Assembly (NCBI GenBank): GCA_047456315.1
Contig: CP179889.1
Coordinates: forward strand, 576,776-640,775
Reading direction: 5' to 3'
Origin: Candidatus Nealsonbacteria bacterium
Lineage (GTDB): Bacteria > Patescibacteriota > Minisyncoccia > Minisyncoccales > JANBVM01
Length of the DNA: 64,000 nt
In this document: positions 11,351 through 33,243 of the stretch, in pieces
How positions within the stretch are numbered: the stretch's first letter is position 1
How the letters are laid out: each line of letters opens with the position of its first letter
Program-made: the position numbers and the translations under genes
The notes under the pieces: generated by a model
Database searches by the model: none
The model's input: the letters and a program-made list of their open reading frames with translations, nothing else
Told to the model about the DNA's origin: nothing

Positions 11351-11361
11351 ACTTTTAATTC

Positions 11362-12454: not shown

Positions 12455-12455
12455 T

Positions 12456-16293: not shown

Positions 16294-16294
16294 T

Positions 16295-18029: not shown

Positions 18030-18034
18030 GGCTT

Positions 18035-18064: not shown

Positions 18065-18089
18065 TTGCCCACTATTTTATAAAAATATG

Positions 18090-18365: not shown

Positions 18366-19228
18366 AATTGATTGAAATTTCTAAAAATCTCTTTAATTTC
18401 TTTTTTAGCCCTCAGATTAGTTTCTAAAATTGGTTTTAGGTTGCTGATGGTTCTGAATATTTCTTTATCATAAGATATTTTCCCCAAGAATTTTCTATCA
18501 GCCCATTTCTCTATCTTTTGACTTAAATCTATATAAATATCCCATTTATTAATAACTAAACCGTAAGGAATATTAAAATGATTAACTACTTTCAAAACTC
18601 TTTTTAAATCAGTAAATCCAGAGGGCGTTGGCTCAGTAATTAAAATAGCAAAATTTGAATCTTGTAACGAAGCAATCACCGGACAACCAGTTCCTGGAGA
18701 AGAATCTATTAACATTATTTCATAATTGAATTTTTCTGCTTCTTTTTTGATCTCAGTAACAATTTTACCAGAACCTGTTTCACCCGGGTAAAGCTGACCA
18801 GAAATCAAGGGAAAACCATATTTTGTTTTTTTGATATGAATTTTACCATTTTGAACTGGTTTTATTTTAATAGCTTTTTTAGGGCATACAATCTCGCAAG
18901 CTCCGCAACCTTCACATAAAAATAAGTTTAATTTGGGCTTTCCCTTTATCATTTTTATTGCCTCAAAGACACAATTTTTGGCACACAAACCGCAACCGTC
19001 GCATTTCTTAAAATCAATTTCTGCCTTGGCTGAAGTAACAACAGAAAAAACCTTATCCCATTTTTTAATTCCTCCTAACCAAATATCTAAATTAGGAGCA
19101 TCAACATCGCAATCTACTGCCACTACTTCTTTATTCTCTGCAAAGAGCATTGCCAAAGCTGAAGTTAACATGCTCTTTCCCACTCCCCCTTTTCCACTAC
19201 AAACTACGATTTTTTTTACCTTCCTCAT
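18350..19228 (-). CDS. MinD/ParA-superfamily P-loop ATPase with inserted 2x[4Fe-4S] ferredoxin domain
   Basis: GKGGVGKS Walker A; CDGCGLCAKNC and CEGCGACEIVCP cluster motifs. Confidence 0.8.
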   Translation of the reverse strand: MRKVKKIVVCSGKGGVGKSMLTSALAMLFAENKEVVAVDCDVDAPNLDIWLGGIKKWDKVFSVVTSAKAEIDFKKCDGCGLCAKNCVFEAIKMIKGKPKLNLFLCEGCGACEIVCPKKAIKIKPVQNGKIHIKKTKYGFPLISGQLYPGETGSGKIVTEIKKEAEKFNYEIMLIDSSPGTGCPVIASLQDSNFAILITEPTPSGFTDLKRVLKVVNHFNIPYGLVINKWDIYIDLSQKIEKWADRKFLGKISYDKEIFRTISNLKPILETNLRAKKEIKEIFRNFNQLWQDQ

Positions 19229-19250
19229 TTTTTATTTAAACCTAATCTAT

Positions 19251-19766
19251 TTATTCAGGAAGAACACCAAAAGTATTATTAAAACGATTAATATAATTAA
19301 AAAGACCGATTACTGAAATAATCTCTACTATCTGAGATTCTGTTAGTTTTTCTTTTAATTTTTCAAAGATTTCAGGTTGATCAAGATGAGCATCTGCTGT
19401 TATATCTTTTACTAATTCTAAAATCTTTTTCTCTTCTTCTGGTAATTCTTTTCTTTGTTTAATTTTTTTTATCATTTCTTCTGTTGCCCCAAATTTTTTT
19501 AACATTTTTGTAGTCACATCAACACAAAAAACACATCTTAACATGTCGGAAACTGTATAAGCTATTTTCCATTTCAAGTAGGGTTCTATTTTACCCTCTC
19601 CCATAATAACTTTAAAAAGTTCAGTGAACTCTTTTAAAATCTTAGGACTATGAGCCATTACCTTGACCCACTCTGGAGTTTTACCAGTTTCTTTTTCAAA
19701 CTTTTCATAAACTTCTTTGGCAATCTCCTTGACTTGATCTTTCTCTAAAGAGGGAATAAGAGCCAT
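19251..19766 (-). CDS. Carboxymuconolactone decarboxylase / AhpD-like family protein
   Basis: All-helical, ~170 aa, with a CxxC (RCVFCVD) as in the AhpD-like core. Confidence 0.65.
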   Translation of the reverse strand: MALIPSLEKDQVKEIAKEVYEKFEKETGKTPEWVKVMAHSPKILKEFTELFKVIMGEGKIEPYLKWKIAYTVSDMLRCVFCVDVTTKMLKKFGATEEMIKKIKQRKELPEEEKKILELVKDITADAHLDQPEIFEKLKEKLTESQIVEIISVIGLFNYINRFNNTFGVLPE

Positions 19767-19770: not shown

Positions 19771-20607
19771 TTATACTAAATTAAAATCTAATAACTGACC
19801 TTTTGAATAAGCTTCGACTAATTTTTTCGAATAAGGAATTTCTTTTTTAATTTCGGTATTAAATTCTTTAGCGATTTTTTCAATTTCTGTTTTAATTCCC
19901 AAATCAGCTTGATTTAAAACTATTTTAGCTGGCACTTTAAGTTTTTGGCACAAATCTAAAATCAAACTTAAATCATGAGCGCCCATTGGAGTGGGTTCAG
20001 TAACAACGTAAGCTAGATCACAATCCAAAAGGGCAGAAATTACCGGGCAATGAGTGCCAGCAGCTGTATCAAACAGAATAAAATCTGGTTTAATTTTTTT
20101 TACTAAATTGGAGACAAATTTCTTAGTTTGAGTTACTACAGGCCCTGTCTCCTCAAGACCTGGCTTAGCAAGACCAGTCACTAGCCAGTAATCTTTTTTA
20201 ATCTTATTCAAAAAAATCTGGCCAGTTTGCTCCTTTTTCGGTTGAATGGCTTTATGCGGACATACTATCCAGCAAGCTCCGCAAGCTGAACATAAATCTT
20301 TAAGAAATAAAGGATATTTCCCTGAAGCTTGAAATATGGCATTACTACGACAAGTACTAACACATAATCCGCACTTTTGACATTTTGCTTTGTTTAATGT
20401 CGGAAATTCAGCCATTACTTTTTGCCGGGGCTTCTTTAATTTCTGACTCAGAAGCAAATAATCATTTGGACATTCAACGTCGCAATCACAAAGAATAACT
20501 TTTTTGTTTTCTCTAGCAAGTTTATTCGCTAATAAAATGGCAACGGTGGATTTTCCTACGCCTCCTTTTCCGCCTGTAACAGCGATTCTTTTAATTTTCT
20601 TTTTCAT
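19771..20607 (-). CDS. MinD/ParA-superfamily P-loop ATPase with inserted ferredoxin domain (paralog)
   Basis: GGKGGVGKST Walker A; CQKCGLCVSTC and CSACGACWIVCP motifs. Confidence 0.8.
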   Translation of the reverse strand: MKKKIKRIAVTGGKGGVGKSTVAILLANKLARENKKVILCDCDVECPNDYLLLSQKLKKPRQKVMAEFPTLNKAKCQKCGLCVSTCRSNAIFQASGKYPLFLKDLCSACGACWIVCPHKAIQPKKEQTGQIFLNKIKKDYWLVTGLAKPGLEETGPVVTQTKKFVSNLVKKIKPDFILFDTAAGTHCPVISALLDCDLAYVVTEPTPMGAHDLSLILDLCQKLKVPAKIVLNQADLGIKTEIEKIAKEFNTEIKKEIPYSKKLVEAYSKGQLLDFNLV

Positions 20608-21832
20608 CTTTTCTCTTAATTTCTTCTAGAATATTATCTAGATTTTTCTCCGAAGAAATTATTTCAACTTCAATGCCAAAGTTTTCTAAATTTTGCTTGG
20701 CATTAGAACCAATCTGTTTTGTAAAAACTTTATCTGCTCTTACTGCTTTGGCAAATCTTGCTCCGCGGGGATGCTTTTCTTCGAAATAAGGATTCTTAAT
20801 AATCTCTTTTGTTAAAATGTTTTTATCTTTCTTGTCCAGAACTAAATATTTATTCACCCCAAAAAGAGCACTAATTTTCTCTTCTTCAAGAGGAATAATA
20901 ATCCTTTCTCCTAATTTCTTAGGGCCGATTTGTTCAAAACCCTCAAGTACCCCTATTTTCTTTCCTAATTTAGGCAGAATAATGCTCTTTGCCATTTCAT
21001 AGGCTTCAATGGAAATAACTATTTGTTTTAGTTCTGGAATATTTTTGAGCAATCTTTCTTCTAAAACATTGATTATTTTCTGAACATCTTCAACTTTTAA
21101 TTTTGGAGGAAGTTTAATTTTAATTTCAGCAAAATTAGCTGCTCCAATTTTTCTGGTTTTTAATTGAGAGATTTCTATTTTATGAGAAAGGCATATCTTT
21201 CTAATTCTCTCTTCTACATCCTTATTAGCCACATCTAATAAAGAATCAGTAATTTCTCTTCCTATTTGAAATGCTTGATAAAGAATATAACCACCAATAA
21301 ATAAAGCAATTATGGCATCAGCTAAATTAAAATATCTAACTAAACCAAGCCCCACTAAAACACCGATTGAACTAATTACATCTGCCCTTGAATGCTCAGC
21401 ATCAGCCACCAGGGCTAAGCTTTGGTACTTTCTTCCGTAATGAAATTTTAATCTGGCTAAAATTTCAGTAATTAAAATAGAAATAATTATTACAACTATT
21501 GCTCCAACGCTGAGTTTAACTATTTTTTCTTCAAAAAACCTCATCACTGCTTCATACAAAATCCAAATACCGGAAACTGCTAAAAGTATTGTTACTAAAA
21601 AACCAGCCAAGCTCTCTGCTTTCCAATATCCATAGGGATGCTTTTCATCAACTGGCTTTCTAGCTGTCCTTAATCCTAAAAAAATAACAAAAGAAGAAAA
21701 AACATCTAAACTAGAATCTATTCCATCTGCAATTAAAGCTACACTGCCAGTTAAGAAACCGAAGACCAGCTTAGATATTCCTAAGCCAAGATTCACAAAA
21801 GTACTAATTATTGAAACAGATTGAGGATTCAT
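20591..21832 (-). CDS. Cation diffusion facilitator (CDF) transporter fused to a C-terminal NifX/NifB-like domain
   Basis: Six TM helices with the ADGIDSSLD and HSRADVISS metal sites, then a cytoplasmic CDF domain. A further ~110 aa resembles the following NifX-like protein. Confidence 0.75.
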   Translation of the reverse strand: MNPQSVSIISTFVNLGLGISKLVFGFLTGSVALIADGIDSSLDVFSSFVIFLGLRTARKPVDEKHPYGYWKAESLAGFLVTILLAVSGIWILYEAVMRFFEEKIVKLSVGAIVVIIISILITEILARLKFHYGRKYQSLALVADAEHSRADVISSIGVLVGLGLVRYFNLADAIIALFIGGYILYQAFQIGREITDSLLDVANKDVEERIRKICLSHKIEISQLKTRKIGAANFAEIKIKLPPKLKVEDVQKIINVLEERLLKNIPELKQIVISIEAYEMAKSIILPKLGKKIGVLEGFEQIGPKKLGERIIIPLEEEKISALFGVNKYLVLDKKDKNILTKEIIKNPYFEEKHPRGARFAKAVRADKVFTKQIGSNAKQNLENFGIEVEIISSEKNLDNILEEIKRKDEKEN

Positions 21833-21850
21833 AAATAATGAAAAGGGTTT

Positions 21851-22267
21851 TTATCTTTTCCCTCTCCTTTTATTTCTAAAACGTTTTCTTTGATCGAATC
21901 GTGGTCTAGAAGCAGGACGACAAGGCACTGCCTCTGTTGTTTCTTTAAGTTTTCCCTTTTGATACTCTGTAACAGCATCTCGCACGCTCATTGCTGGGCT
22001 ACTAAGAAAAACCTTTATTCCAGAACTGCTTAAAGCTAAAGAAGCGTTAGGTCCAATATTTCCAGTGATCACCACTTTAACTTTTTCCTTAGCTACAATT
22101 TCAGCAGCTGTAACACCAGCACCCCGCATTGCCTGCACCCCAGTATTTTTAATTACCTTAATCAGTTCTCCTTTATCATCAACAATCAAAAAATAAACTG
22201 CTCGGCCAAATCGAGGATCTAAAGGTGTATCTAAATTATTACCAGTAGCACTAATACAAATTTTCAT
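21851..22267 (-). CDS. NifX/NifB-like (dinitrogenase FeMo-cofactor-binding fold) protein with basic tail
   Basis: MKICISATGNNLDTPLDPRFGRAVYFLIVD... is the typical opening of this family. R/K-rich C-terminus. Confidence 0.7.
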   Translation of the reverse strand: MKICISATGNNLDTPLDPRFGRAVYFLIVDDKGELIKVIKNTGVQAMRGAGVTAAEIVAKEKVKVVITGNIGPNASLALSSSGIKVFLSSPAMSVRDAVTEYQKGKLKETTEAVPCRPASRPRFDQRKRFRNKRRGKR

Positions 22268-22272
22268 AAATT

Positions 22273-22488
22273 TTATTTAGATCTAGTCATTGAACTGCCA
22301 CATTGAGGGCATTTATGATTATAACAAGGCACTCCTCTTCTGTGAGGAGTTTTTGTCCTGCACTCAGGACAGATACATTCTCCTCCGGGCCCTAAACCAA
22401 AACCGCTTGGTTGTCGGCCTCGACCACCTCTTCCAGGCGCTCTAAATCTACCGCCAGGAGGAACTGAGGGAATTCTTTTATTCGGCAT
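22273..22488 (-). CDS. Arg/Gly-rich zinc-ribbon protein
   Basis: CICPEC...CPQC four-Cys ribbon after an RGG-like N-terminus. Confidence 0.5.
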   Translation of the reverse strand: MPNKRIPSVPPGGRFRAPGRGGRGRQPSGFGLGPGGECICPECRTKTPHRRGVPCYNHKCPQCGSSMTRSK

Positions 22489-22489
22489 A

Positions 22490-22753
22490 TTACTTTTTCT
22501 TTTTGGTTTCTAACTCCTTTAATCTCTCTCCAATAGACTTCATTTCTTCTTTTAAGTCTTTTAAGTCTTCAATTAATATCTCTTTTTCTTCTTCTCTTGT
22601 TATTTCTGGTATAAAAGGATCATAATTCCAACCCCATCCACGACCTCTTCTTAGACCTCTGCCCCATCCAAAACCTCTTCCTATACAAGGTCCCCATCCC
22701 CAACCAGCACCTGGTCCGTAACCAAAAGGTCCTCTTCCATTAAATCTTGGCAT
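22490..22753 (-). CDS. DUF5320-like protein
   Basis: Gly/Trp/Arg-rich N-terminus (MPRFNGRGPFGYGPGAGWGWG) followed by a short coiled coil (EEEKEILIEDLKDLKEEMKSIGERLKELE). Confidence 0.6.
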   Translation of the reverse strand: MPRFNGRGPFGYGPGAGWGWGPCIGRGFGWGRGLRRGRGWGWNYDPFIPEITREEEKEILIEDLKDLKEEMKSIGERLKELETKKKK

Positions 22754-22908: not shown

Positions 22909-23172
22909 CTATCTTCTATTTTTCCTATTCCTGTGATTATTCATATTATCAGACATTTTTTTAAAAGTATTTTCCAGGTTCACCCTATCAGCAATCATCT
23001 CCCCTATTATTGCAAAGGGAATTGCAATTGCCACTATAATTCCAATCATTCTTGGCGTGATTGAAGCTCCTGTTGTTAATTTAATAGCAATAATATCCTC
23101 AGTTATTCCAATTAAAATTCCGAAAAGCAGGAATTCAAACATTACTTCTAATTTTTTCCACTTTGAAACCAT
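22909..23172 (-). CDS. Small two-TM membrane protein
   Basis: ORF with two hydrophobic helices and a basic tail; no family recognised. Confidence 0.4.
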   Translation of the reverse strand: MVSKWKKLEVMFEFLLFGILIGITEDIIAIKLTTGASITPRMIGIIVAIAIPFAIIGEMIADRVNLENTFKKMSDNMNNHRNRKNRR

Positions 23173-23222: not shown

Positions 23223-26200
23223 TTATTTTAAGATTCTTTGCCAAAAGCTTTTAAGCTCTAGCTTAATATTAAAATGAATCGGCTCTCCCTCTCTTACCTC
23301 AAACGCTTCTGATTGATAGCCTTCATAATCAAGCTGCTCTACCTTTATATAATATTTCCCTTCTGGCACTAAAAATGAATACTGTCCAGTTTGATCAGTA
23401 ATTTGAGGATTTTTCTGATCATAGCTTTCTGCTGGCCAAAGAATATAGCCATCTGTAGATTTATCAAATACAAACAAACTGGCTTTGGCTCCCTTTATAC
23501 GAAGCTCACCTCTTTTAAGCTGTTCATAGATATATCCTTCAGGATCAACAAGCACAATCTTTTCCACACTCTTTTCTGTTCCATCAATAAAATTAATATC
23601 AACTCCTAACTTATACTCTCCTGTTACTGGAGGCATATATAAAATAGCTTTGAAAAATCCTTTTTCATCAGGTCCTTCAAACTTAAAGCTTTGGATTTCA
23701 TATGTTTTTGCAAAAACACTGGCCGCAGAAACCTTAGAGATGAAAGGCAGATAAAATGTGTGTTTTAATTCTATTTGAGAAGTTTTCTCAAAGTATAAAA
23801 ATCCTTTTAATGTTGAAATTGGTTTTGAGGGTTTAATAAACACAGCAATCTCTTTACCAGCAATAACATGGGCTCGCTTATCAATTAAATCAAGATCAAT
23901 ATTACCAAAAGCACTGCGCACCATAATAGTGTCTATTCTCACAATTTCAGGTGATACAGAAGGTTGAGGCACAGCTCTTTTTTTGACCACTTTTTCTTCT
24001 AATAATAATTTTTCTTGCAACGGGATTTGTAAGTAAGTCTGGTATGACTTTAACTGACGAATTGGTAGATCAGAAAAATAAGCTGCTCTGTCAATTATTA
24101 AATTAATGCCTTGATCTACCACTTTTATAACTTGGTGTGAAAACTGTGTTATTTTTCTTGTGTTTTCTTGAACTTGTTTGATTATATTTTTAATCACTGA
24201 ATCTCTTGATTCTTTAATTTCAGAGATTGTTGAACTAATTCCCTTGTCTACTGTTTTTATAGTTTGACGTGAAAATTCTGTTACACTTTTTGTAGTCTCT
24301 TGGGTTCTCTCAGCTATATTTTCAAAAGATTCGCCGACAAAATCAGTTATATTATCAATTATTTCAGATGTTTTTATAATTACATCTTGAGTTGTTTCAA
24401 TAATTTCTTTCCCTAGTTCTTTTAAAACTTGAGGTGCTTCTATTTCAATGGGAGGAAATAAAGGTTCTGGTAAAACAACAGGGGGTTCTGGAATCTCTGG
24501 AAGTATTGGAACAGGCAAAGGCTCTTCGATTTCTGGTTCAGGTAAAATCTGCTTTTGAAGCTCTTCTTGAAGTCGCAATATTTCTTTTTGAATATTTATA
24601 ATTCTAATTTTCAAATCTGCAATTAAAAGATCTATAATTATAGGAGACGGAATTTCTTCTTCAGGTTCAGGCGGCGCTTCGCCTGATGGATGCGTCGGCG
24701 CTGGAGCTGTAACTTCGGGAACTTCCTCTTCTTCTCCTGTCAAGGTAAAACTTTTGCTATTGGAGTCATAATTATTAGAGCGAACTATTATATTACCAGA
24801 AGAAGCGTCATCTGGAATTTCGATAGTAATAGACGTATCTGTCCAGACAGAAATCTTGCTGTCTTCAACTAAGACCCCATTAATAGTGATTTTATCGCTG
24901 GAGCTTGCCCTGTTGCCTTGTTCTGGACAAGTTCCTGATTGACAAAAATGATTTCCTGAAATTACAACTGATTCTCCAGCTTGAGCAGAACTGGGACTAA
25001 GACTGGTAATTCTGGGAAGAATTCTAAAATTAGTCCAGTTGTCTGCTTTGCTGTCAGAAGAGCGAGTAAGAACAATATTGCCTGTATAGCTATTATCACT
25101 GATGCTGGTAGGAATTCTTATTGCAATAGCAGTATCAGCCCAGGAATTAACTGTAGCGCTTTCTCCTAACACAGTAATTATTCCTGTTGAATCAGCAAAT
25201 CTATTGCCATTAATCGTTATTATGCCATCGCTGTCTGACGAAGAATATTCTCTAGCTGCATTAGTTATTTGAGGCGTGGTTAAAGAAGTAATATCAGGAT
25301 AAATATAAAAAGTTAAGAGCGAAGAATCATCAACGGCATTAGCTCTGACTATTAGACCATTGCTATTACTTCCGCCAAAAACATTGATATCTGGGGCAAT
25401 AGTAAAAGTGATATTTGTTGAATTCCAGGAAGAAACATCATCGCAAGAAATAGAATAAGAACCAATTTTTACTTTACTTTGCGGCGAACTGCAAGAAGAG
25501 CCAAAATTAGATCCAGAAACAGTAATCTGCTGGTTAATACGTCCTCCATCAGTTAATCCAGGCTCAGTATCATTAGTAAATGAAGTAGCGTCAGGACCAG
25601 AAACCGTGATTAGTTTTGGATATTGAGTGTAAACAGATAAAGCGGTTCCATCTGCCTTGACCATCTTAAAACAATAAGTAGTTGAAGCACTAGCTCCATT
25701 ATCTTCTACTACCCAGTCCCATTCTCCTTTCTCACCTATTTCAATAGCGACAGGATTAGATAAAGAGTTATTTTCTTCTTCATAGGTCTCTAGTTTATTG
25801 GTCTGAGAATCTAATAAGGAGGATGTGATACTAGCTCCATCAGCAGGAGTAGTATTGTTGTATCCACGCCAGATGGTTCCACTTGATATTGCTCCTGTAT
25901 CATACCAGTTAAGACCTGAATCACATGTAGCAGTTGTTGAAGCGTACTGGAGTTTAAATGCTTGAGTAGAAGTAGCTAAAGATGATGAAGCTATCTGAAT
26001 AGATGTTCTGATTCTTAAAACATCATTAGTAGCTACATTGGTAATAGCAGTGTTTTCATCAGCTTTAGGAGTTGTTGGCTGGATATTGTCAATGTTGTCA
26101 TAGAAACGGTAGTAGTTCTGAATAAGAGTGGTGCTGGCTGTGGTTAGCTTTGGATAGTTGGTGTAGGTATTAAGAACACTATCATCTGACTTAACCATTC

Positions 26201-29200
26201 TAAAGCAGTAATCAGTATTGGCTATTGCTCCATTATCTTCTACTACCCAGTCCCATTCTCCTTTCTCACCTATTTCAATAGCAACAGGATTAGATAAAGA
26301 GTTATTTTCTTCTTCATAAGTCTCTAGTTTATTGGTCTGAGAATCTAATAAGGAGGATGTGATACTAGCTCCATCAGCAGGAGTAGTATTGTTGTATCCT
26401 CTCCAGATGGTTCCACTTGATATTGCTCCTGTATCATACCAGTTAAGACCTGAATCACATGTAGCAGTTGTTGAAGCGTATTGGAGTTTAAATGCTTGAG
26501 TAGAAGTAGCTAAAGATGATGAAGCTATCTGAATATTCATCCTGAGTCTTAAAACATCATTAGTAGCTACATTGGTAATAGCAGTGTTTTCATCAGCTTT
26601 AGGAGTTGTTGGCTGGATATTGTCAATGTTGTCATAAAAGCGGAAATCTTTTTGCGTAAAGGTAATAGGAGTAATAAAAACTACATTAATATAATCAGCT
26701 TTTAAGGTCTGGTTTCCTGATGCCTGATAGACTCTAATATAAACCCAATTGCTAGCATCATAATAATAGCCAGGATTGGTATCTATGGTGGCTTCTAAAA
26801 GAAAATCTGTGTTAGCGCTGCAAGTAGTATTAGTAGCCAAGTTGTCCCAACTACTAGAGTTGGAGTTATAAGCCTGAAGATAGACAGTATTGATATCGCA
26901 AGCTACTGTGGTCTGACCATCCCAATCAATATCAATATCATCAGTATTATTGGTATGTTTTTCAGCAAAGAGAAAAATTGGATAAGCTGAACTGCTGGTA
27001 GCTGGGTCATAACTACTATCATCTGTGGCAACGGCTGTATAACCTGTATCATCTAAATAATAAGTTAAATCTGATTCATCAATGGGAAGAGACCCTTGGC
27101 TTGTTTTGGAATATCGCTTAGTTACTGAAGAAACAATGGATAACTGACCATAGCTGGAGTAATTGTCTAAAATTTGGGTATCAGTGTTGTTATAAAGTCG
27201 TAAACAGTAACTAGTGTTTTCTGCAGCATTAGATGTCTCAATCATAAAACCAAACTCAGTGTTATAATCAATATCAAGAGTATGAGCAGAGCTAGTGGAG
27301 ACGTTTTCATGCCATGTCCCATTAGTAAAACCAGTACACCCATCATCACAAGAACTGGTAGTGTCAGTAACAGCAGCACTAATAGCATCTCCGTTTACTC
27401 CAGCCAGACCAAGAGAATAAGAAATGGCTGTAGTACCGGTGGCATCATACCAGGTCTCAGCTGCTGAACATCCAGTTCCGAAAGTTTTAAACTGAAGCTT
27501 GTAAACTTTGCTTGTAGCAGCAGCAGTTCCAGTATTGTCTAATTGAACCCTCCAGATAGCCCTCTCTCCTTTTTCCATTGTTAAAGAAGTGTCAGCATTA
27601 GCAGAATTAGTGTTTGAATTGACATTTGCTCCATTATCATTCTGCCAACGGTAAGAACGTTGGTTGAGAATCGGGCTAACTAGCGTATAAGTAATTCTCA
27701 CTGGTATCCAATCATAAGAATTTGTTCCTGGACCACCCTGTTGATCATGTCTTACCCTTACCCTAAAGTTAGTATTATTTAATTTTGTATCATCCCAAGT
27801 AGTAGCAGAAGTAAAATCCCAATAAACTACAGTTTCACCATTACAATCACTTAATGCTGAACTTACTTGCTCAGCGCTCCAGTTACTTCCTCCTCCATCC
27901 CAGGAAACTGAAATTGCTATTTTCTCGTCTCCGCACGCTTCGTAACCAACTTCTACTTTATCAATACTATTACCCGATAATGAAATATTATAATCGTAAT
28001 AATCATGAGAATCATCATTCGGTAATGAAGTGGCATAACTATCGTTTGAACTATAAGCATTGATTGGATCAGTAAAACCACCCACTACTGCTGCATTGTT
28101 GGTGGGACTATAAACTGTTTCAGCAGCTTTTACTTTTTGCGACTCTGACCTAAAATTAAAAATTGGCCCCATAAAGGAAAGAATAAGCACAACAATCAAA
28201 ACCAGCGAAACAATCTGTTTTGAAGAAATTTCATACTTGATTTGTTCTGGCCATATTCTTTTTATCGTTAACGTGCTTTTCTGAAATATTTCTTTAGCTT
28301 TTACAACACCTTCAATATAGTTACTGAACGCGCCTGATATTTTCCCGTCTATTTTCTGAATTCCCTGCTTAACGCTTACTCCTAGCTCGTTTTGATACCA
28401 TTCAATAAAATCCATAAAACCCAGCACTCTTTCTCCAGTTGAGTTCAATGCTTTTTTAAAAACCTGTTTTTCATCATTGCAAATTTCAAATAGTAATTTT
28501 CTATAATAAACAAGCAGTGCTTTGGTCTTTATTTTTATTCTTTCTTTTTTGTAAACAATCCTGTGCCAAAATCTAATTTTTAAAAGTTTAAAATGTATTT
28601 TAAATTTAAATAATTTTAAGTTTATGTTTTTGAAAATGAAAGCAAGAAGTTGCCTTCTGTGATTTATTTCACTCTTCAGCAACTTCTTTTTTTCTTCAAA
28701 TGAAAATATGAATGATTTGTAATTTTTTAAAAATATTTTTTTATTTTCTTTTTTAAATAAAAATAAATATTTTTTAATTTCTTTTTCTGTTTTAATTCTT
28801 TCTTTTATGAATTCTTTTTTGTACTTGCTAAATTCATACCTTATAATTTTTATTTTTTTACTGGTAAAACGAATTGTTAAAGATCTTTGTTTCAACAAAG
28901 ATCTTTCTAATATTTTAAATCTTTTTTGATAATCACAAGTATATTTTTTGGATAGTTTTTTATACTCATGAATATAATCAGAAATCGCTTTTTTAGCTTT
29001 ATTTTTGATTAAATTTGCTTTTTTAGGTGCTTTATTAAAAACAGCTTGGAAAAACAATTTTTCCATTTCTTTTTGATAGCTTTCAAAAAAATCAATAAGT
29101 TTTAATGCTCCGTTCCCAATAGAATTAAACAGATTTTTAAAAACCTGTTTTTCATCATTAATAATTTCGATAAATAAATTTTTATATTTTATTAAGAAAT

Positions 29201-29642
29201 AATTTATTTTATTTATTTTTTTATTTATTTTTTTAAATAAATTAAATAAAAATAAATATGTTTTTTGAATTTTTTTATTGTGAAAAACAACTTTTTTTTG
29301 CTCATTAAAAAAAGAAATTCCCAAAGATTTTCTTTGGGCTAAAAATTTCAATTCTTTTTTATATACTCTTTTTAATTTTCTTCTCTGCTCTTTGTATTCA
29401 CTCTCAATGCTTTTTATTTTGTTCTTAATCAACAAGATTAATGAAACTATTTGCTTATAAAGCTTCTTTTTTTGTCTCTTTAGTAAACGAATATTCTTTT
29501 TTAAAAATCTTCTAATCTGAACCAACAAAACTCTGATTCTTTTCAAATGAAAAAACCTTCTAACTTGAATTAACAAAACCCTGGTTCTTTTTAAAGACCA
29601 AATTCTGATTTTTTTCCAAATTGTTATGATTTTTTTTGTCAT
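23223..29642 (-). CDS. Giant (2139 aa) single-pass surface protein
   Basis: From the N-terminus: ~475 aa Lys/Arg-rich repetitive region, one TM helix (IVSLVLIVVLILSFMGPIF), and beta-rich Asn/Ser/Thr modules including three copies of a ~178-aa module. Then IPT/TIG-like repeats (ITVSGSNFG, ITINGNRFA, VVISGNHFC), a Pro/Glu linker, a coiled-coil repeat (TEFSRQTIKTVDKGI / TQFSHQVIKVVDQGI), and a C-terminal carboxypeptidase-regulatory-like beta-sandwich. Confidence 0.85.
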   Translation of the reverse strand: MTKKIITIWKKIRIWSLKRTRVLLIQVRRFFHLKRIRVLLVQIRRFLKKNIRLLKRQKKKLYKQIVSLILLIKNKIKSIESEYKEQRRKLKRVYKKELKFLAQRKSLGISFFNEQKKVVFHNKKIQKTYLFLFNLFKKINKKINKINYFLIKYKNLFIEIINDEKQVFKNLFNSIGNGALKLIDFFESYQKEMEKLFFQAVFNKAPKKANLIKNKAKKAISDYIHEYKKLSKKYTCDYQKRFKILERSLLKQRSLTIRFTSKKIKIIRYEFSKYKKEFIKERIKTEKEIKKYLFLFKKENKKIFLKNYKSFIFSFEEKKKLLKSEINHRRQLLAFIFKNINLKLFKFKIHFKLLKIRFWHRIVYKKERIKIKTKALLVYYRKLLFEICNDEKQVFKKALNSTGERVLGFMDFIEWYQNELGVSVKQGIQKIDGKISGAFSNYIEGVVKAKEIFQKSTLTIKRIWPEQIKYEISSKQIVSLVLIVVLILSFMGPIFNFRSESQKVKAAETVYSPTNNAAVVGGFTDPINAYSSNDSYATSLPNDDSHDYYDYNISLSGNSIDKVEVGYEACGDEKIAISVSWDGGGSNWSAEQVSSALSDCNGETVVYWDFTSATTWDDTKLNNTNFRVRVRHDQQGGPGTNSYDWIPVRITYTLVSPILNQRSYRWQNDNGANVNSNTNSANADTSLTMEKGERAIWRVQLDNTGTAAATSKVYKLQFKTFGTGCSAAETWYDATGTTAISYSLGLAGVNGDAISAAVTDTTSSCDDGCTGFTNGTWHENVSTSSAHTLDIDYNTEFGFMIETSNAAENTSYCLRLYNNTDTQILDNYSSYGQLSIVSSVTKRYSKTSQGSLPIDESDLTYYLDDTGYTAVATDDSSYDPATSSSAYPIFLFAEKHTNNTDDIDIDWDGQTTVACDINTVYLQAYNSNSSSWDNLATNTTCSANTDFLLEATIDTNPGYYYDASNWVYIRVYQASGNQTLKADYINVVFITPITFTQKDFRFYDNIDNIQPTTPKADENTAITNVATNDVLRLRMNIQIASSSLATSTQAFKLQYASTTATCDSGLNWYDTGAISSGTIWRGYNNTTPADGASITSSLLDSQTNKLETYEEENNSLSNPVAIEIGEKGEWDWVVEDNGAIANTDYCFRMVKSDDSVLNTYTNYPKLTTASTTLIQNYYRFYDNIDNIQPTTPKADENTAITNVATNDVLRIRTSIQIASSSLATSTQAFKLQYASTTATCDSGLNWYDTGAISSGTIWRGYNNTTPADGASITSSLLDSQTNKLETYEEENNSLSNPVAIEIGEKGEWDWVVEDNGASASTTYCFKMVKADGTALSVYTQYPKLITVSGPDATSFTNDTEPGLTDGGRINQQITVSGSNFGSSCSSPQSKVKIGSYSISCDDVSSWNSTNITFTIAPDINVFGGSNSNGLIVRANAVDDSSLLTFYIYPDITSLTTPQITNAAREYSSSDSDGIITINGNRFADSTGIITVLGESATVNSWADTAIAIRIPTSISDNSYTGNIVLTRSSDSKADNWTNFRILPRITSLSPSSAQAGESVVISGNHFCQSGTCPEQGNRASSSDKITINGVLVEDSKISVWTDTSITIEIPDDASSGNIIVRSNNYDSNSKSFTLTGEEEEVPEVTAPAPTHPSGEAPPEPEEEIPSPIIIDLLIADLKIRIINIQKEILRLQEELQKQILPEPEIEEPLPVPILPEIPEPPVVLPEPLFPPIEIEAPQVLKELGKEIIETTQDVIIKTSEIIDNITDFVGESFENIAERTQETTKSVTEFSRQTIKTVDKGISSTISEIKESRDSVIKNIIKQVQENTRKITQFSHQVIKVVDQGINLIIDRAAYFSDLPIRQLKSYQTYLQIPLQEKLLLEEKVVKKRAVPQPSVSPEIVRIDTIMVRSAFGNIDLDLIDKRAHVIAGKEIAVFIKPSKPISTLKGFLYFEKTSQIELKHTFYLPFISKVSAASVFAKTYEIQSFKFEGPDEKGFFKAILYMPPVTGEYKLGVDINFIDGTEKSVEKIVLVDPEGYIYEQLKRGELRIKGAKASLFVFDKSTDGYILWPAESYDQKNPQITDQTGQYSFLVPEGKYYIKVEQLDYEGYQSEAFEVREGEPIHFNIKLELKSFWQRILK
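25694..26639 (-). repeat. Tandem 534-nt (178-codon) duplication inside the giant gene
   Basis: 25694-26105 and 26228-26639 are near-identical, with only a handful of mismatches by eye. The offset is exactly 534 nt, so the duplication is in frame. Confidence 0.9.
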
Positions 29643-29792
29643 GTTTTTTTTAAAATCAAAAGTATAGCCTCAGCTCAATAGCATAAAGGATATATTAGTT
29701 AATTATACGCCTAATACAAAGAATACGCCTGTGGATAAACCCACCAAGAGCCCAGCAATCATTCAGCTCTTGTCAAAAGCGCAATTATTCTT

Positions 29793-29810
29793 TTAAAGAC
29801 GTTAGAAAAA
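29793..29810 (-). repeat. Copy H (short, degenerate) of the repeat core
   Basis: Minus strand reads TTTTCTAACGTCTTTAAAAG, followed 16 nt later by TTGACA. Confidence 0.35.
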
Positions 29811-30417
29811 AATACAAAAGAAAATTTATTTTAATATTTCGATATCAAGAGTTTTAAAAATCTTGTCAACAATAACACTTACCTATTTTACATTTTTGTT
29901 GGTCACAGAAACTTGATGTTCTTTTCCCTCTGCCATAGTTCTTAAAGTCTGACAAACCAATCAATAAAAGCAGTGTTGTAATAACTGCTTGGTAGTTTGA
30001 AAAAATTGTTAGCAATAATTGTTTTGTAAATTTCTAATAACTTCTTGTTTGTTAAAAAAATTGTTCTGTTGATTTCTGGTTAACAATTATTTGGCTAACA
30101 ATTAAATTAATTTCCATTGCCAAAAATTTCAAACTCGCTCCATTCCCAACCTGAATGACAACCTCTCCAACTATGCTTAATTTGCAAATCATCAGACAGT
30201 GTTTGTGGCTTTAATAAAACATAATTGAAAATTAAAGAGAGGTTGTAATTTCAGTGATAATTATTACAATTGAATCCTTTTTCCTCATAAAATCCTTAAT
30301 AAACCTTAAAAATCATTATAAATCATATCTATTATCAGGATGTCTGAGAAATAGCTAAAATACTTATAATATAAGCAATAATTTCTGGAATAAAACCAGT
30401 AAAAATAGTTGATGTGT

Positions 30418-30445
30418 TTCGAGAAACGAACGATATTAAAACCCA
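30418..30445 (-). repeat. Copy G of the repeat core (overlaps a stop codon)
   Basis: Minus strand reads GGGTTTTAATATCGTTCGTTTCTCGAAAC. The TAA stop of the 143-aa ORF lies inside it. Confidence 0.45.
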
Positions 30446-30867
30446 TTTCTTTTTTTAATAGCTATCACCATAACACCTACCATGCCAATTAAAAAACCAA
30501 GAGGACAAACAAAAATTGCAATAAGGAAAAACGCCACGTGTAAAACTTCTGTCAAATAATTCAATAGAACAATATGACCAGTAATTATACTTAAAGCATA
30601 AAAGGCATTATGCAAAAAAACAAAGATAAAAAATCCAACAGCAGAAGCCCCTGTTAACAGCAAGAACTTTCTCAATACTCCTTTTATTCTTTTTTTCAAG
30701 GTTAAAAATATTAATACTACGCCCAAGAAAGAGAAAATAATAAATGGTAACAAAAAAAGCTCAGAACCTTTAAACAAGTTTCTAATTACTGGAATAAAAA
30801 ATTCACTCAATATAAAAAGAAAAAATCCTACTAATGCCCAGAATGTTATCGTTAAAGATTTCTTCAT
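30436..30867 (-). CDS. Hypothetical four-TM membrane protein
   Basis: ORF with four clear hydrophobic helices; no family recognised. Confidence 0.5.
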   Translation of the reverse strand: MKKSLTITFWALVGFFLFILSEFFIPVIRNLFKGSELFLLPFIIFSFLGVVLIFLTLKKRIKGVLRKFLLLTGASAVGFFIFVFLHNAFYALSIITGHIVLLNYLTEVLHVAFFLIAIFVCPLGFLIGMVGVMVIAIKKRNGF

Positions 30868-30876
30868 TGCTTTACT

Positions 30877-30910
30877 CTACCAAAAAATCGCCCTTTAGGC
30901 GATTTTTATT
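30877..30910 (-). repeat. Direct repeat of the sequence immediately 3' of tRNA-Asn (terminator module)
   Basis: CTACCAAAAAATCGCCCTTTAGGCGATTTTTATT here versus CTACCAAAAAACCGCCTTCTCGGCGATTTTTGTT at 33276-33309. They match at 29 of 34 positions. The sequence also folds as a hairpin flanked by A- and T-runs. Confidence 0.7.
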
Positions 30911-30964
30911 ATAAGCTTTCATTATTGAACGTACTTAAAATTTTTGATTGTAGAATAATTAGAA

Positions 30965-30985
30965 AAGAAATCGAACCGCTTAAAT
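30965..30985 (-). repeat. T-loop-like fragment (GCGGTTCGA) downstream of csp
   Basis: Minus strand reads AAGCGGTTCGATTTC, compared with GCGGGTTCGAGTCC in tRNA-Asn. It comes directly after the csp terminator hairpin (GCACCTT...AAGGTGC). Confidence 0.4.
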
Positions 30986-31029
30986 TAAACACAAAAGCAC
31001 CTTCAATATCAAGGTGCTTTTGTAGAGTA

Positions 31030-31230
31030 TTAGACTCGATTGACGTTTGTAGCACTAGGTCCTTTTTCGCCCTCAGTTACTTCAAATGTCACTTTGTCGC
31101 CTTCTTTGAGTTCGTTGAACTCTACGTTCTTAAGCTCGTTTGAATGGAAAAAGAGATCTTTTTCTTCACCCTCACGACTAATGAACCCAAATCCTCGATC
31201 AGTAAGTCGAGCAATTGTTCCTTCTTGCAT
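31030..31230 (-). CDS. cspA: Cold-shock domain protein
   Basis: Contains GTIARLTDRGFGFISREGEEKDLFFH, the RNP1/RNP2 motifs of the CSD. Confidence 0.92.
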   Translation of the reverse strand: MQEGTIARLTDRGFGFISREGEEKDLFFHSNELKNVEFNELKEGDKVTFEVTEGEKGPSATNVNRV

Positions 31231-31313
31231 AGAATTTAAAGAATTAATAAATAATGTTCGAAAATATAATACTGTAGAACAAAACCCGACTACGTTTTTC
31301 TTACAGTATCAGT

Positions 31314-31342
31314 ATAATACCATTTGTATAATTTTACGTCAA
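31314..31342 (-). promoter_or_regulatory. Sigma70-type promoter of csp
   Basis: Minus strand reads TTGACG - 17 nt - TATTAT. It leaves a ~75-nt leader containing the inverted repeat CTGTAAGAA...TTCTACAG. Confidence 0.55.
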
Positions 31343-31351
31343 TACTTAGTT

Positions 31352-31378
31352 CCAAGTCACGAACGACATTAAAACCTA
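31352..31378 (-). repeat. Copy E of the repeat core
   Basis: Minus strand reads ATAGGTTTTAATGTCGTTCGTGACTTGG, starting 12 nt after the stop of the 68-aa ORF. Confidence 0.45.
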
Positions 31379-31389
31379 TTTTGTTGGCA

Positions 31390-31596
31390 TTATTTAAAAA
31401 TTTTATTCTTAACTTTCTTAATTTCTGGTGGTTTTTCTAATAGTTGTCCTTTATATAATTTATATAAAAGAGGAATAACTCCACAATCTTTACATTTACC
31501 CCAAGCGCATTTTCCTTTCTTTTCTTTAAATAGTCTTTTACACATTGCAATCTCCTTATTAAAAATCTCTTTACTAATAACTTTTTTCTTTTTCAT
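31390..31596 (-). CDS. Small Lys-rich Cys-cluster protein (68 aa)
   Basis: ORF with C-x11-C-x5-C-x2-C (CKRLF...CAWGKCKDCG); no family name recalled. Confidence 0.45.
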   Translation of the reverse strand: MKKKKVISKEIFNKEIAMCKRLFKEKKGKCAWGKCKDCGVIPLLYKLYKGQLLEKPPEIKKVKNKIFK

Positions 31597-31610
31597 ATTC
31601 TTATTTTATC

Positions 31611-31668
31611 AAAAAACCGCCTAAAAGGCGATTTGCCAGGGCTCCGTATCGTGAACGATGTTAAAAAT
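31611..31668 (-). repeat. Copy C: repeat core plus a tRNA-Asn-terminator-like hairpin
   Basis: Minus strand reads TTTTTAACATCGTTCACGATACGGAGCCCTGGCAAATCGCCTTTTAGGCGGTTTTTTG. The CGGAGC and AAATCGCC-N4-AGGCGGTTTTTTG parts parallel the tRNA-Asn 3' end and its terminator. Confidence 0.6.
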
Positions 31669-31938
31669 AATCTAAAATGTTCCTGTTTCGAACTTGAATT
31701 TTGTACAACTATATAAAAATATTGGTCTTAGAAACTATGGAATAAAGAAAATGGTTAAAATTATAATTAAAACCATTTAAAAAAATTAGTCAGGAGGAAA
31801 TTTTAGGGCTTTCTTTATGTCTTCAAGCCCTTTTATTACTGTCTCTGTTTCTTCCTCTTTCTCTTCTGACTTTTTTTCTTCTACATTCTCAAAGAGCGTC
31901 ATATCATTTTATTACCTTATTTAAAGAATTTATCAACT

Positions 31939-31999
31939 AAAAAACCTGAGATAATATTTCGAGTTCACAGCTCTAGAGACTAGATGAGATTAAAACCTG
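31939..31999 (-). repeat. Copy F of the full ~60-nt unit (AT-decayed)
   Basis: Minus strand reads CAGGTTTTAATCTCATCTAGTCTCTAGAGCTGTGAACTCGAAATATTATCTCAGGTTTTTT. It differs from copy B mostly by transitions. Confidence 0.6.
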
Positions 32000-32047
32000 T
32001 TTAATTAAATAAAAAAAGTTGGCGACTAAGCACCAATCTTTAATAGA

Positions 32048-32218
32048 TTAATCTTTACTCCTTTTAAGATAAGCTTTAACTCCGCCTCTCTCTCCTCCAT
32101 TTATTACGTCCATTAATTCCCAGCCCTGCTTACCTAATTCGTTCAACTTATTTACATCCGAGCTATTACCTTTAAGCTTTAAAAATTCATATTCAAAAAT
32201 TTCCCTTATAAAAATCAC
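32048..32218 (-). CDS. DUF4177-like mini-protein (56 aa, GTG start)
   Basis: Own translation: VIFIREIFEYEFLKLKGNSSDVNKLNELGKQGWELMDVINGGERGGVKAYLKRSKD. The LNELG..GWEL core is DUF4177-like. Start codon uncertain. Confidence 0.4.
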   Translation of the reverse strand: MIFIREIFEYEFLKLKGNSSDVNKLNELGKQGWELMDVINGGERGGVKAYLKRSKD

Positions 32219-32277
32219 CTTTAATTTGTAATTTTAATCTACCTCTTTCTACTTCATATTTTGCTTATTGTCAAGTT

Positions 32278-32328
32278 AAAAACCCAAGAAATAATCTCGG
32301 GCAGGTCGTTGAAAGACGTTAGAACCTA
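32278..32328 (-). repeat. Copy D of the unit (core + hairpin + T-run)
   Basis: Minus strand reads TAGGTTCTAACGTCTTTCAACGACCTGCCCGAGATTATTTCTTGGGTTTTT. GACCTGCCCG matches tRNA-Asn GTCCTGCCCG at 9 of 10 positions. Confidence 0.6.
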
Positions 32329-32333
32329 TTTTA

Positions 32334-32606
32334 CTACCTGAACTGAATTACAAATAAGCCCTTTTCTTCAATTTCTTCTTTCTGTCCAAAATCATTAAGT
32401 TTAAACTTCGAAACATAATCTACCAACTTTTCTATTTTCCTTCCTGTGTATTGTCTAGTCTCTGGATTCCATTCCTCTAACACGAATGTGTCCCCTTCTT
32501 TAATATCAAAATCAGCTAACCTTAGCTCAAATCTCTTTTTACCAGAATTTATGAGCTCAAAATAATCTGGCCAGATTTTCTTTTTGATGATTGCCATATA
32601 TTTCAT
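32334..32606 (-). CDS. ASCH/DUF3850-like small protein
   Basis: Contains KKKIWPDYFELINSGKKRFELRLADFDIKEGDTFVLEEW, matching the DUF3850 pattern (K.fE.R..D....GD.l.L.E). Confidence 0.6.
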   Translation of the reverse strand: MKYMAIIKKKIWPDYFELINSGKKRFELRLADFDIKEGDTFVLEEWNPETRQYTGRKIEKLVDYVSKFKLNDFGQKEEIEEKGLFVIQFR

Positions 32607-32612
32607 TATATC

Positions 32613-32675
32613 AAAAACCCGAGAAACAATCTCGGGCTGAACGAAGCTCCGGGGGCTGGACGAGGTTAGAATCTG
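32613..32675 (-). repeat. Copy B of the unit (best preserved)
   Basis: Minus strand reads CAGATTCTAACCTCGTCCAGCCCCCGGAGCTTCGTTCAGCCCGAGATTGTTTCTCGGGTTTTT. Against tRNA-Asn GCGGGTTCGA/GTCCTGCCCGCGGAGC it scores 7 of 10 and 14 of 16, with a 5-nt insertion (ACCTC). Confidence 0.7.
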
Positions 32676-32688
32676 CTTAACACTTAAT

Positions 32689-33243
32689 TCATTGTAAAAA
32701 ATCAGGATCTACCTCTAAAAACTGTTTCATTTTATTCAGGGCAATTTTTCTCATAGACATAGAATCTTTTTCCTCCTGGCTCATTTCTGCAAAAGTTTTG
32801 TTATAGCCTTCTGGTTGAAAAATTGGATCCCATCCGAAACCACCTTCACCCCTTGGCTTCTCTGGTATTTGACCTTTAATTTCACCCGTAAATATCTTCG
32901 CCTCTTTGCCGTTGTAAAGGCAAATAGAGATTTTAGCAGTGACAGTGCGGTTCTTTTCTTGAAAAGCCAAGCACAATCCCTCGTTATCAAGAGTTTTCAA
33001 AATCCATTTAATCAACGCTCCTGGGAATCCTTGCCAGGCCTCAATGTAAAATCCTGTATCTTCAACCATCACTGGTTTTTTAACCTGCTCAAAAGCCCTC
33101 TTGGCCTTATCTTTAACTACCTCTTCTATCTTGAGAGTCTGAATCTCGTTGATATCTAAAAGTATCTTATCAACTTCAAAACCTAGAATGTCTTCTACTT
33201 CTTTAATCTTGTTTTCGCTAGATGTAATAAAATAAAGTTGCAT
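32689..33243 (-). CDS. rdgB: Non-canonical purine NTP pyrophosphatase (RdgB/HAM1 family)
   Basis: Contains FITSSENKIKE...EDTGFYIEAWQGFPG...GFGWDPIFQPEGYNKTFAEM. Confidence 0.88.
   Translation of the reverse strand: MQLYFITSSENKIKEVEDILGFEVDKILLDINEIQTLKIEEVVKDKAKRAFEQVKKPVMVEDTGFYIEAWQGFPGALIKWILKTLDNEGLCLAFQEKNRTVTAKISICLYNGKEAKIFTGEIKGQIPEKPRGEGGFGWDPIFQPEGYNKTFAEMSQEEKDSMSMRKIALNKMKQFLEVDPDFLQ

Follow-up and report, generated by a model that had tools for sequence, protein, structure and literature searches.

A giant gene in a Candidatus Nealsonbacteria chromosome

The DNA analysed here, referred to as the window, is a 64-kb stretch (64,000 nucleotides) of contig CP179889.1 of a Candidatus (Ca.) Nealsonbacteria bacterium, and the gene of interest lies on its reverse strand. 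It codes for a 2139-residue protein composed of a polybasic N-terminal region of 475 residues (the head), a single putative transmembrane (TM) helix and an ectodomain of about 1640 residues (Table 1). The window is ordinary bacterial chromosome, with rpoB/rpoC, EF-Tu/EF-G, GroEL, DnaG, sigma-70, FtsK, RNase J and four tRNAs. The gene is an intact open reading frame (ORF) of 6420 nt with an ATG start, is among the largest in its genome and takes up 10% of the window, as a note made earlier from the letters of this DNA had observed. An identical protein, P0001, is deposited as 'MAG: IPT/TIG domain-containing protein [Candidatus Nealsonbacteria bacterium]' on a contig of 647,540 bp (MAG, metagenome-assembled genome). 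No frameshift or assembly error splits the ORF, a danger that the earlier note had raised: unbroken head-TM-ectodomain frames were also found in five further independent assemblies, which rules out a chimeric ORF or an assembly artefact.

Little is known of how Patescibacteria hold on to their hosts and sense them. Candidate-phylum bacteria of this kind have been observed attached to other microbes; Ca. Nealsonbacteria were found in this way as epibionts of Methanothrix, and only type IV pili were indicated as a possible means of attachment (bioRxiv 10.1101/2022.04.20.488981). The giant gene couples what is probably an adhesin-like fibre to an intracellular domain that matches no described family. 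What is new here is a narrow family of head domains, their variation in length at the level of strains, and an unexpected DnaA-box-like element that is invariant in the promoters of the family. Relatives of the gene are designated L001 to L006 (loci), and proteins met in the searches P0001 to P0014.

Table 1. Features of the giant gene and of the DNA upstream of it, in window coordinates (aa, residues of the 2139-residue protein; AF2, AlphaFold2; TRF, Tandem Repeats Finder; the arrow marks the candidate cut).
Feature	Residues (aa)	Position	Strand	Basis
Whole gene: head, TM and ectodomain	1-2139	23223..29642	(-)	ORF list, translation
Head, polybasic amphipathic helical repeat domain, predicted cytoplasmic	1-475	28218..29642	(-)	Composition, open frame, homologues, dN/dS, periodicity, AF2
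Tandem duplication in head, 48-nt unit (16 codons), 1.9 copies	about 16-47	29503..29595	(-)	TRF period 48, 82% matches
Conserved head motif, copy 1, LFIEIINDEKQVFKNLFNSIG...YQKE	155-195	29058..29180	(-)	Alignment with 14 invariant columns, DNA repeat
Conserved head motif, copy 2	383-423	28374..28496	(-)	Self-comparison, motif alignment, DNA repeat
Single putative TM helix / signal-anchor	476-498	28149..28217	(-)	Kyte-Doolittle
VKA↓AE, candidate signal peptidase I site after Gly-Pro helix breaker	504-508	28119..28133	(-)	Motif comparison, inferred
Module A	510-655	27678..28115	(-)	Conserved in L003, L005, L006; AF2 beta, low confidence
Modules B1 (661-839), C (840-993), B2 (994-1171), B3 (1172-1349)	661-1349	25596..27662	(-)	Repeats, homologues P0007-P0011
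Three IPT/TIG domains	1350-1636	24735..25595	(-)	PF01833, E 1.9e-16, three stretches
Pro/Glu-rich linkers, short helix, helical repeat region	1637-1860	24063..24734	(-)	Translation, L004 comparison
Conserved C-terminal beta region	1895-2139	23226..23960	(-)	L004 alignment; contains sub-threshold CarboxypepD_reg-like stretch
TATAAT -10 hexamer, about 60 nt upstream of ATG		29702..29707	(-)	Promoter alignment
Invariant 11-mer TTATCCACAGG, perfect DnaA-box consensus TTATCCACA + GG		29728..29738	(-)	Alignment of 7 family promoters
Conserved non-coding block, repeated TTGACAA / TTGTCAA motifs		29780..30120	(-)	Alignment of 5 loci

Translation of the head

The head is rich in lysine (20.8%), isoleucine (12.0%), leucine (10.7%), phenylalanine (8.6%) and arginine (6.1%). 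Lys plus Arg make up 26.9% of its residues and Asp plus Glu 8.0%, which gives a net charge of +90; hydrophobic residues account for 40% and proline for 0.4%. The phenylalanine content compares with about 3% in the other proteins of the window, and the fraction of lysine among the basic residues, K/(K+R), is 0.77, against 0.57-0.70 in the ribosomal-type, sigma and RNA polymerase proteins encoded in the same window.

The reading frame of the head contains no stop codon, and the other two forward frames contain 42 and 56. Shuffled head DNA gave a mean of 50.7 stops per 475 codons and a minimum of 29 in 2000 shuffles; at about 0.107 stops per codon, we calculated the chance of 475 open codons to be roughly 5e-24. 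The ratio of nonsynonymous to synonymous substitutions (dN/dS) was 0.32-0.48 for the head in seven pairwise comparisons (0.32-0.42 between the window head and its relatives) and 0.18-0.34 for the ectodomain, values that are rough because dS is near saturation in several of the pairs. The internal duplications are all in frame, with spacings that are multiples of three (48, 480, 534 and 681 nt).

Whether the protein might start further on, at the TM helix, had been put forward earlier as a challenge to the existence of the head. The only in-frame methionine near the TM helix of the window protein is Met410, and an internal start at this position was rejected because its ribosome-binding site is poor and the methionine is not conserved, being replaced by Ile in L003 and by Phe in L004. 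The homologues keep instead both the distal ATG and the head sequence: the start is retained across six independent assemblies, and in five loci the conserved ATG has a stop codon 3-19 nt upstream of it. An intact ORF, together with the conservation of the head and the purifying selection on it, makes its translation almost certain.

Helical character of the head

The earlier note had described the head as almost pure Lys/Arg/Ile/Phe low complexity with internal repeats. The richness in these residues stands, and the repeats are real, being recovered by TRF, by BLASTP and as DNA repeats; the low complexity does not stand, since the head is by its sequence a conserved, proline-poor array of amphipathic alpha-helical repeats that is under purifying selection and carries a specific motif. 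The first pair of repeats, IRIWSLKRTRVLLIQVRRFF / LKRIRVLLVQIRRFL, is the 48-nt tandem duplication of Table 1, and alignment shows it as an insertion in the window head relative to P0002 and P0005. The second pair, which begins EIINDEKQVF in one copy and EICNDEKQVF in the other, joins residues 135-224 with residues 363-443 at 39% identity, and at the DNA level the copies are 76% identical over 71 nt with a spacing of 681 nt. Both copies hold the one conserved island of the head that is not basic, LFxEIxNDEKQVFxxLxNSxGxxxLxFxDxxExYQ, in which 14 alignment columns are invariant between species as well as between the two copies that the window protein carries.

Hydrophobicity along the head is periodic. 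The period peaked at 3.6-3.67 residues in six of six heads of the family, with z of 5.5-8.2 against shuffles (6.2 for the window head), and the helical hydrophobic moment at 100 degrees gave a z of 4.4. An AF2 model built from a five-sequence alignment was helical almost throughout, with seven helices of up to 134 residues, and had no confident tertiary packing (predicted local distance difference test, pLDDT, 49.9; predicted template modelling score, pTM, 0.20). Helices of 80-130 residues in the model, together with the repeat structure, could be taken to mean that heads join in long coiled coils and so gather several fibres in a single complex. We regard this as very unlikely: in all six heads the z at the heptad period of 3.5 residues was lower than at the peak (2.9-5.5 versus 5.5-8.2), and helices that together carry a net charge of +90 would be driven apart by repulsion if nothing neutralised them.

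No match to the head was found in Pfam at E up to 10, in NCBIfam at E up to 0.1, or in sequence searches of the PDB, including a profile search; the same searches returned no known nucleic-acid-binding family, and among the families of long signal peptides neither ESPR, YSIRK nor KxYKxGKxW matched it in Pfam or NCBIfam. The full-text literature searched held no description of the domain or of the architecture. The head represents a new and very narrowly distributed domain family on a known kind of protein.

Distribution and evolution of the family

With residues 1-500 as the query, phmmer was run exhaustively against 1.84 billion cluster representatives and yielded only P0002 to P0005 as relatives (E-values 2e-63 to 3e-12), with no others at E < 1e-10. 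P0006, a eukaryote-like protein of 3909 residues rich in Ala, Arg and Gln and helical in character, was dismissed as a compositional match (E 4e-4). DNA scans with the alignment of the conserved motif revealed four further loci, L003 to L006. L003 belongs to MAG CSMAG_54, L005 and L006 are metagenome contigs, and L004 comes from the complete 689-kb genome of Ca. Nealsonbacteria CK12Hparc1; L004 and L006 are apparently the same genes as P0005 and P0004, respectively, or nearly identical to them.

Every complete member consists of a head, a single TM helix and then an acidic ectodomain, the whole L004 orthologue reaching 3688 residues. The heads of the relatives measure 466, 560, 292, 305 and 386 residues, and all six heads of the family contain 27-34% Lys plus Arg, about 40% large hydrophobic residues and less than 3.5% Pro plus Gly, with net charges of +64 to +104. 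Between the window and L003, identity is 92% for sigma-70, 86% for DnaG, 73% for the ectodomain and 53% for the head, and head identities of 51-53% go with sigma-70 identities of 85-92%; L005 and L006 share 93% of the ectodomain and 62% of the head. The heads of L002 and L004 are 87% identical over the 389 residues that they share, near-identical over most of these, and differ by one unit of about 170 residues. On these comparisons the head evolves faster than the ectodomain, and by duplication of units. What seems to be constrained in it is charge, helicity, amphipathicity and one motif, rather than a packed fold, and in this respect the head is a clean natural example of a domain in which charge and amphipathicity would be constrained more than sequence, with a number of units that varies among strains.

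One family sequence, L002/P0005 (a Logan assembly), has an in-frame TGA at L002 1356-1358, directly after the TM helix. A natural split of the gene was rejected as the explanation, since L004 has TGG (Trp) at this position and its frame runs on into the ectodomain; the stop is a sequencing error or marks a strain pseudogene.

The head could also have no function of its own and be a spacer under low constraint, an AT-driven accretion prone to duplication that sits before the signal anchor and does no harm while its frame is open and its charge positive, as the positive-inside rule demands. The rate of change, much above that of the neighbouring housekeeping genes, the variable number of units, the extreme GC content of its DNA (22.5%), the failure of AF2 to give a fold and the very narrow phyletic range would all fit. 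However, dN/dS is clearly below 1 in all comparisons, 290-560 codons have stayed open in six lineages despite many A7-A8 runs, the motif keeps its invariant columns across copies and species, the amphipathic periodicity is well above that of shuffles, and asparagine, which AT drift should have raised, shows no enrichment (5.3%). A mere spacer is, in our judgement, decidedly unlikely.

The 64-kb window contains no paralogue of the head, and in no other ORF of the window or of the relatives' loci is the first TM helix preceded by a long basic region. Because the other exported proteins of the window have ordinary short N-regions, and modules of the ectodomain occur elsewhere behind an ordinary signal peptide, the head is a lineage-specific addition.

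Topology and a candidate cleavage site

Kyte-Doolittle analysis of the protein gives a single segment above 1.6, at approximately residues 476-498, in agreement with the one TM helix that had been noted after the head, and an equivalent single helix follows the head in every relative. The chain carries a net charge of +90 before this helix and -92 after it (residues 501-2139), and has no hydrophobic signal at its N-terminus. The window protein and five relatives thus show the features of a type II (N-in) signal-anchored protein: one helix, no N-terminal signal peptide and a positive excess on the N side. The positive-inside rule and the single helix together predict an N-in topology; the charge distribution puts the basic region inside the cell, where the earlier note had placed it, and a cytoplasmic head is the only reasonable prediction. 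The giant protein would accordingly be a single-pass protein of the cell surface, with its C-terminus outside.

The sequence that follows the TM helix allows another reading. In five of the six members, including the distant L004, a Pro/Gly helix breaker ends the hydrophobic core and an A/V-X-A motif follows 8-18 residues past it (VKA↓AE, ARA↓SE, ARA↓AS or AKA↓AE; L001 has only LIA↓ST). The TM helix could therefore be the Sec h-region of a giant cleavable signal peptide, whose n-region has grown to 290-560 residues and which signal peptidase I cuts at A/V-X-A. Cleavage would free the ectodomain as a fibre that is secreted or otherwise attached, and leave a polybasic membrane protein of roughly 500 residues in a 1:1 ratio; alternatively, the long n-region might slow or gate the export of a very large passenger. 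Ectodomain modules do occur elsewhere behind ordinary cleavable signal peptides (P0010). The signal peptides of autotransporters provide a precedent for charged N-terminal extensions, with functions that may go beyond targeting, although there the extension amounts to about 25 residues within signal sequences of at least 50 (Hiss & Schneider 2009, PMC2805444), 10-20 times less than in the window family.

The resemblance to the extended (ESPR) signal peptides of autotransporters and two-partner secretion proteins includes the charged N-terminal extension, the hydrophobic core, the AXA-like site and the very large size of the surface proteins concerned. It ends with the length of the extension and the missing ESPR-type match (nor was there one to the YSIRK or KxYKxGKxW families), and the giant protein comes from a candidate-phylum bacterium and has no C-terminal beta-barrel translocator. 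For cleavage by signal peptidase I, moreover, the c-region would be a long one. Common descent may explain why the motif is conserved, as four of the five sequences that carry it are closely related. A freed ectodomain would also lack a means of attachment, as the protein contains neither an LPXTG motif (pattern LP.[TSA][GNAS]) nor another C-terminal anchor or second hydrophobic segment by Kyte-Doolittle analysis. We consider cleavage unlikely, though it is the chief rival of the membrane footing proposed below; were it to occur, the known size range of signal sequences would be greatly extended.

The ectodomain

The ectodomain is rich in Ser, Thr and Asn and had been described as an adhesin-like modular exterior with IPT/TIG repeats, an architecture that our searches bear out. 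PF01833 (TIG) matched at 60.3 bits against a cut-off of 20.9, with the best stretch at residues 1543-1633; the L004 orthologue matches TIG as well, and the two TIG regions are 49% identical. The 178-residue repeated module was also recovered. Its copies B2 and B3 have 86-97% protein identity in three overlapping BLASTP segments and 93% DNA identity over 300 nt at a spacing of 534 nt and are a recent tandem duplication, and B1 (residues 661-839) is an older copy. The PEPE-type linkers and the helical (coiled-coil) repeats are visible in the translation. The helical repeat region, which begins at about residue 1726, is conserved in L004, where the repeat has expanded, and alignment with L004 over residues 1726-2137, which takes in the C-terminal beta region, gives 33% identity.

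The carboxypeptidase-regulatory-like end proposed for the protein fell short of the Pfam threshold: PF13620 scored 22.9 bits with the full protein and 24.8 bits with the C-terminal fragment, below the gathering score of 32.3, and the partial match (residues 2081-2129, window 23256-23402) covers only profile positions 33-82. A PDB sequence search with the C-terminal beta region gave no match, most of the remaining ectodomain belongs to no Pfam family, and no catalytic family was found in the protein by Pfam.

Modules A, B and C (residues 510-1349) have few homologues, mostly on short metagenome contigs. A module of the A type forms the C-terminus of unrelated proteins (P0013, P0014), such as a subtilisin-family protease; P0010, a homologue of the ectodomain modules, has an ordinary short signal peptide; and the L001 orthologue opens with an extra module that P0009 joins to modules of the window type. 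The ectodomain is a mosaic of modules shared with other proteins. Two close homologues of the modules, P0007 and P0011, with 38-59% identity, come from contigs of about 2 kb that were deposited under the name 'Candidatus Thorarchaeota archaeon', and these are likely to be mis-binned patescibacterial fragments.

An AF2 model of residues 501-1000 was all beta, with low confidence (pLDDT 53.8). Foldseek found no match to it in the PDB at E <= 0.001, with TM-scores below 0.25, and the top, non-significant rows (pilins, AgI/II, alpha-2-macroglobulin) say only that it resembles strings of beta-sandwiches. From this architecture we infer that the acidic ectodomain is most likely a string of beta-sandwich-like modules that makes up an extended, adhesin-like fibre.

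By sequence, the ectodomain belongs with the giant IPT/TIG surface proteins (PF01833), with which it shares a very long acidic, S/T/N-rich chain of tandem beta modules with three TIG domains, a recent in-frame duplication of a module and the mosaic sharing of modules. It departs from them in that most of its remaining length has no Pfam family, in the missing LPXTG or C-terminal anchor and, above all, in the 475-residue cytoplasmic polybasic domain predicted ahead of the anchor, which falls in no described family.

A possible role for the head

With a net charge of +90 the head cannot be expected to fold compactly on its own, and would need a polyanion to lie against. For this part we propose the inner face of the cell membrane, which is anionic. 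The array of cationic amphipathic helices, built from duplicating units, would stay in the cytoplasm as a broad electrostatic and hydrophobic footing, adsorbed to the membrane, that anchors the long extracellular fibre and possibly clusters it; the one motif that is not basic could be a docking site for a partner. The inner face of the membrane is favoured because it is the nearest polyanion, and it fits both the Phe/Ile/Leu content of the head and its lysine bias relative to the nucleic-acid-binding proteins of the window. This is our tentative best reading, on which we were close to evenly divided.

Nucleic acid is the other obvious polyanion. A head that binds it could tether the nucleoid, mRNA or ribosomes at the site of the adhesin, or relay contact with the host to the genome. 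The need for a polyanionic partner applies here as well, a strongly positive charge (+64 to +104) is kept whatever the length of the head, and in tiny cells the nucleoid is always near the membrane. However, no known nucleic-acid-binding family or fold was detected, its lysine bias exceeds that of the window's own RNA- and DNA-binding proteins, and its roughly 40% of hydrophobic residues, its amphipathic periodicity and its enrichment in Phe are unlike the Ala/Pro/Lys-rich tails of histone-like proteins. We think such a role rather unlikely. The roles considered here (footing, cleaved signal peptide, nucleic-acid binding, spacer and coiled coil) are not all mutually exclusive.

Several observations count against a membrane footing, with its putative binding of the head to the membrane. 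Only about 30% of the 18-residue windows in the head are strongly amphipathic by the criterion that we used, and its Lys and Arg are spread over the whole polar face and not placed at the interface. Its richness in K, I, F and L is in part what DNA of so extreme an AT content (22.5% GC) would code for in any case. The conserved acidic and hydrophobic motif points to a specific partner, and a footing would need none. The A/V-X-A motif fits a head that is cut from the ectodomain, and a cut there would remove the anchoring role. Finally, because the AF2 models are of low confidence, the beta-sandwich fibre to be anchored rests on the TIG matches, composition and a weak model.

Known systems offer partial parallels to the proposed footing. 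MinD-type membrane targeting helices and the synaptotagmin-1 linker are cationic amphipathic or polybasic segments of 10-60 residues; like the head, they are Lys-rich and have hydrophobic helical periodicity beside the cytoplasmic face of a membrane, whereas the head is hundreds of residues long, has its own motif and repeat dynamics, and binds membrane only putatively. Teneurins, which are eukaryotic type II adhesion proteins, have an intracellular N-terminal domain that contains basic stretches and is a few hundred residues long, then a single TM helix and a huge modular ectodomain with a carboxypeptidase-regulatory/transthyretin-like module. Their topology and proportions resemble those of the giant protein by analogy only: they belong to a different kingdom and have no sequence relationship to it, and the head is a helical repeat array without known teneurin motifs. 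If the head proved to be a scaffold for membrane or nucleic acid, it would give a starting point for learning how ultrasmall cells anchor their attachment structures or signal with them.

Promoter and upstream region

The giant gene would be expressed from its own promoter. Six of the seven family sequences have TATAAT as their -10 hexamer and L003 has TAAAAT, and no TTGACA-like -35 sequence is recognisable at the usual distance from it. Next to the -35 position stands TTATCCACAGG, which is unchanged in seven of seven family promoters, while the flanks diverge. It occurs exactly once in each of the loci L001 to L006 (L001 7927-7937, L002 17-27, L003 9462-9472, L004 8488-8498, L005 9510-9520 and L006 9452-9462), and its end lies 20 nt upstream of the -10 box, or 28 nt in L004 and L002. 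All seven promoters match the DnaA-box 9-mer consensus TTATNCACA exactly, and the 64-kb window has only two perfect TTATCCACA sites. DnaA boxes with one mismatch are not enriched in the window or in L004, which argues that TTATCCACAGG is a promoter site and not part of an origin; a replication origin at this place was rejected on the same ground and because there is no skew minimum.

The position of the site next to that of a -35 box suggests control by DnaA or by another factor. DnaA-box-controlled promoters include that of dnaA itself, which is autoregulated, and those of other genes of the DnaA regulon in E. coli and B. subtilis. The giant gene shares with them an exact TTATCCACA beside the -35 position, invariant across species; it differs in having a single box, 20 or 28 nt from the -10, in coding for a surface protein, which is not a classical target of DnaA, and in that its box is known only as a sequence match.

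If the promoter site and the candidate cleavage site both acted as their sequences suggest, one gene would give two stoichiometrically coupled products: the cleaved head with its TM helix as a polybasic membrane scaffold for lipid or nucleic acid, and a freed attachment fibre, under a DnaA switch acting through the promoter box. This combination is a long shot. Were it true, the head would be the longest n-region of a signal sequence yet seen, and the deployment of host attachment would be tied to the replication cycle of the epibiont.

Further upstream lies a block of about 300 nt that is conserved in five loci (the window, L001, L003, L005 and L006). It reads like a small ORF (...EHQVSVTNKNVK...), but a conserved ORF was rejected and the block treated as non-coding, because the stops that interrupt its frame vary in position from locus to locus. 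It could be regulatory DNA or the remains of a gene. A search of window 29600-32700 against Rfam gave no convincing match, only RF02900 at 31.4 bits against a gathering score of 51.4, outside the block.

Phase variation of the giant gene through slippage in poly-A tracts was also rejected, as the tracts do not exceed the codon-shuffle expectation: the window gene has 10 runs of at least A7, against 9.1 +/- 2.4 in codon shuffles, and the longest is 8. Homopolymer tracts in the genes of the relatives are similar to those of the window gene and not above compositional expectation.

Neighbouring genes

A few genes separate the giant gene from dnaG-rpoD, which lies upstream of it in the window, L003 and L001. 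It has no conserved operon partners at the loci compared, its immediate neighbours differing from one locus to the next. In the window it is flanked by genes for two small hydrophobic proteins of 87 residues (22909-23172 (-)) and 143 residues (30436-30867 (-)), neither of which matched a family. The 87-residue ORF begins 50 nt past the stop codon of the giant gene and is followed by a terminator-like hairpin at 22886-22871, and on account of this short gap and the hairpin it may be co-transcribed with the giant gene. Downstream of the giant gene, 19771-22753 (-) holds a metal/FeS-type gene cluster that codes for a DUF5320 protein, a NifX/NifB-like Nitro_FeMo-Co protein, a cation-efflux protein fused to a Nitro_FeMo-Co domain and a MinD/ParA-type ATPase with 4Fe-4S motifs.

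The L004 orthologue (8579-19645, CP179887.1) stops 24 nt short of the end of the deposited 689,429-bp chromosome sequence, and about 1.5 kb upstream of it is an IS605 OrfB / Cas12f-like TnpB gene (5851-7092). In L005, the giant gene is preceded by a gene for a multi-PAS histidine kinase of 1175 residues (3945-7472), and between the two lies a gene (7580-8812) whose 410-residue product ends in a TM helix and has a cohesin-like match below threshold.

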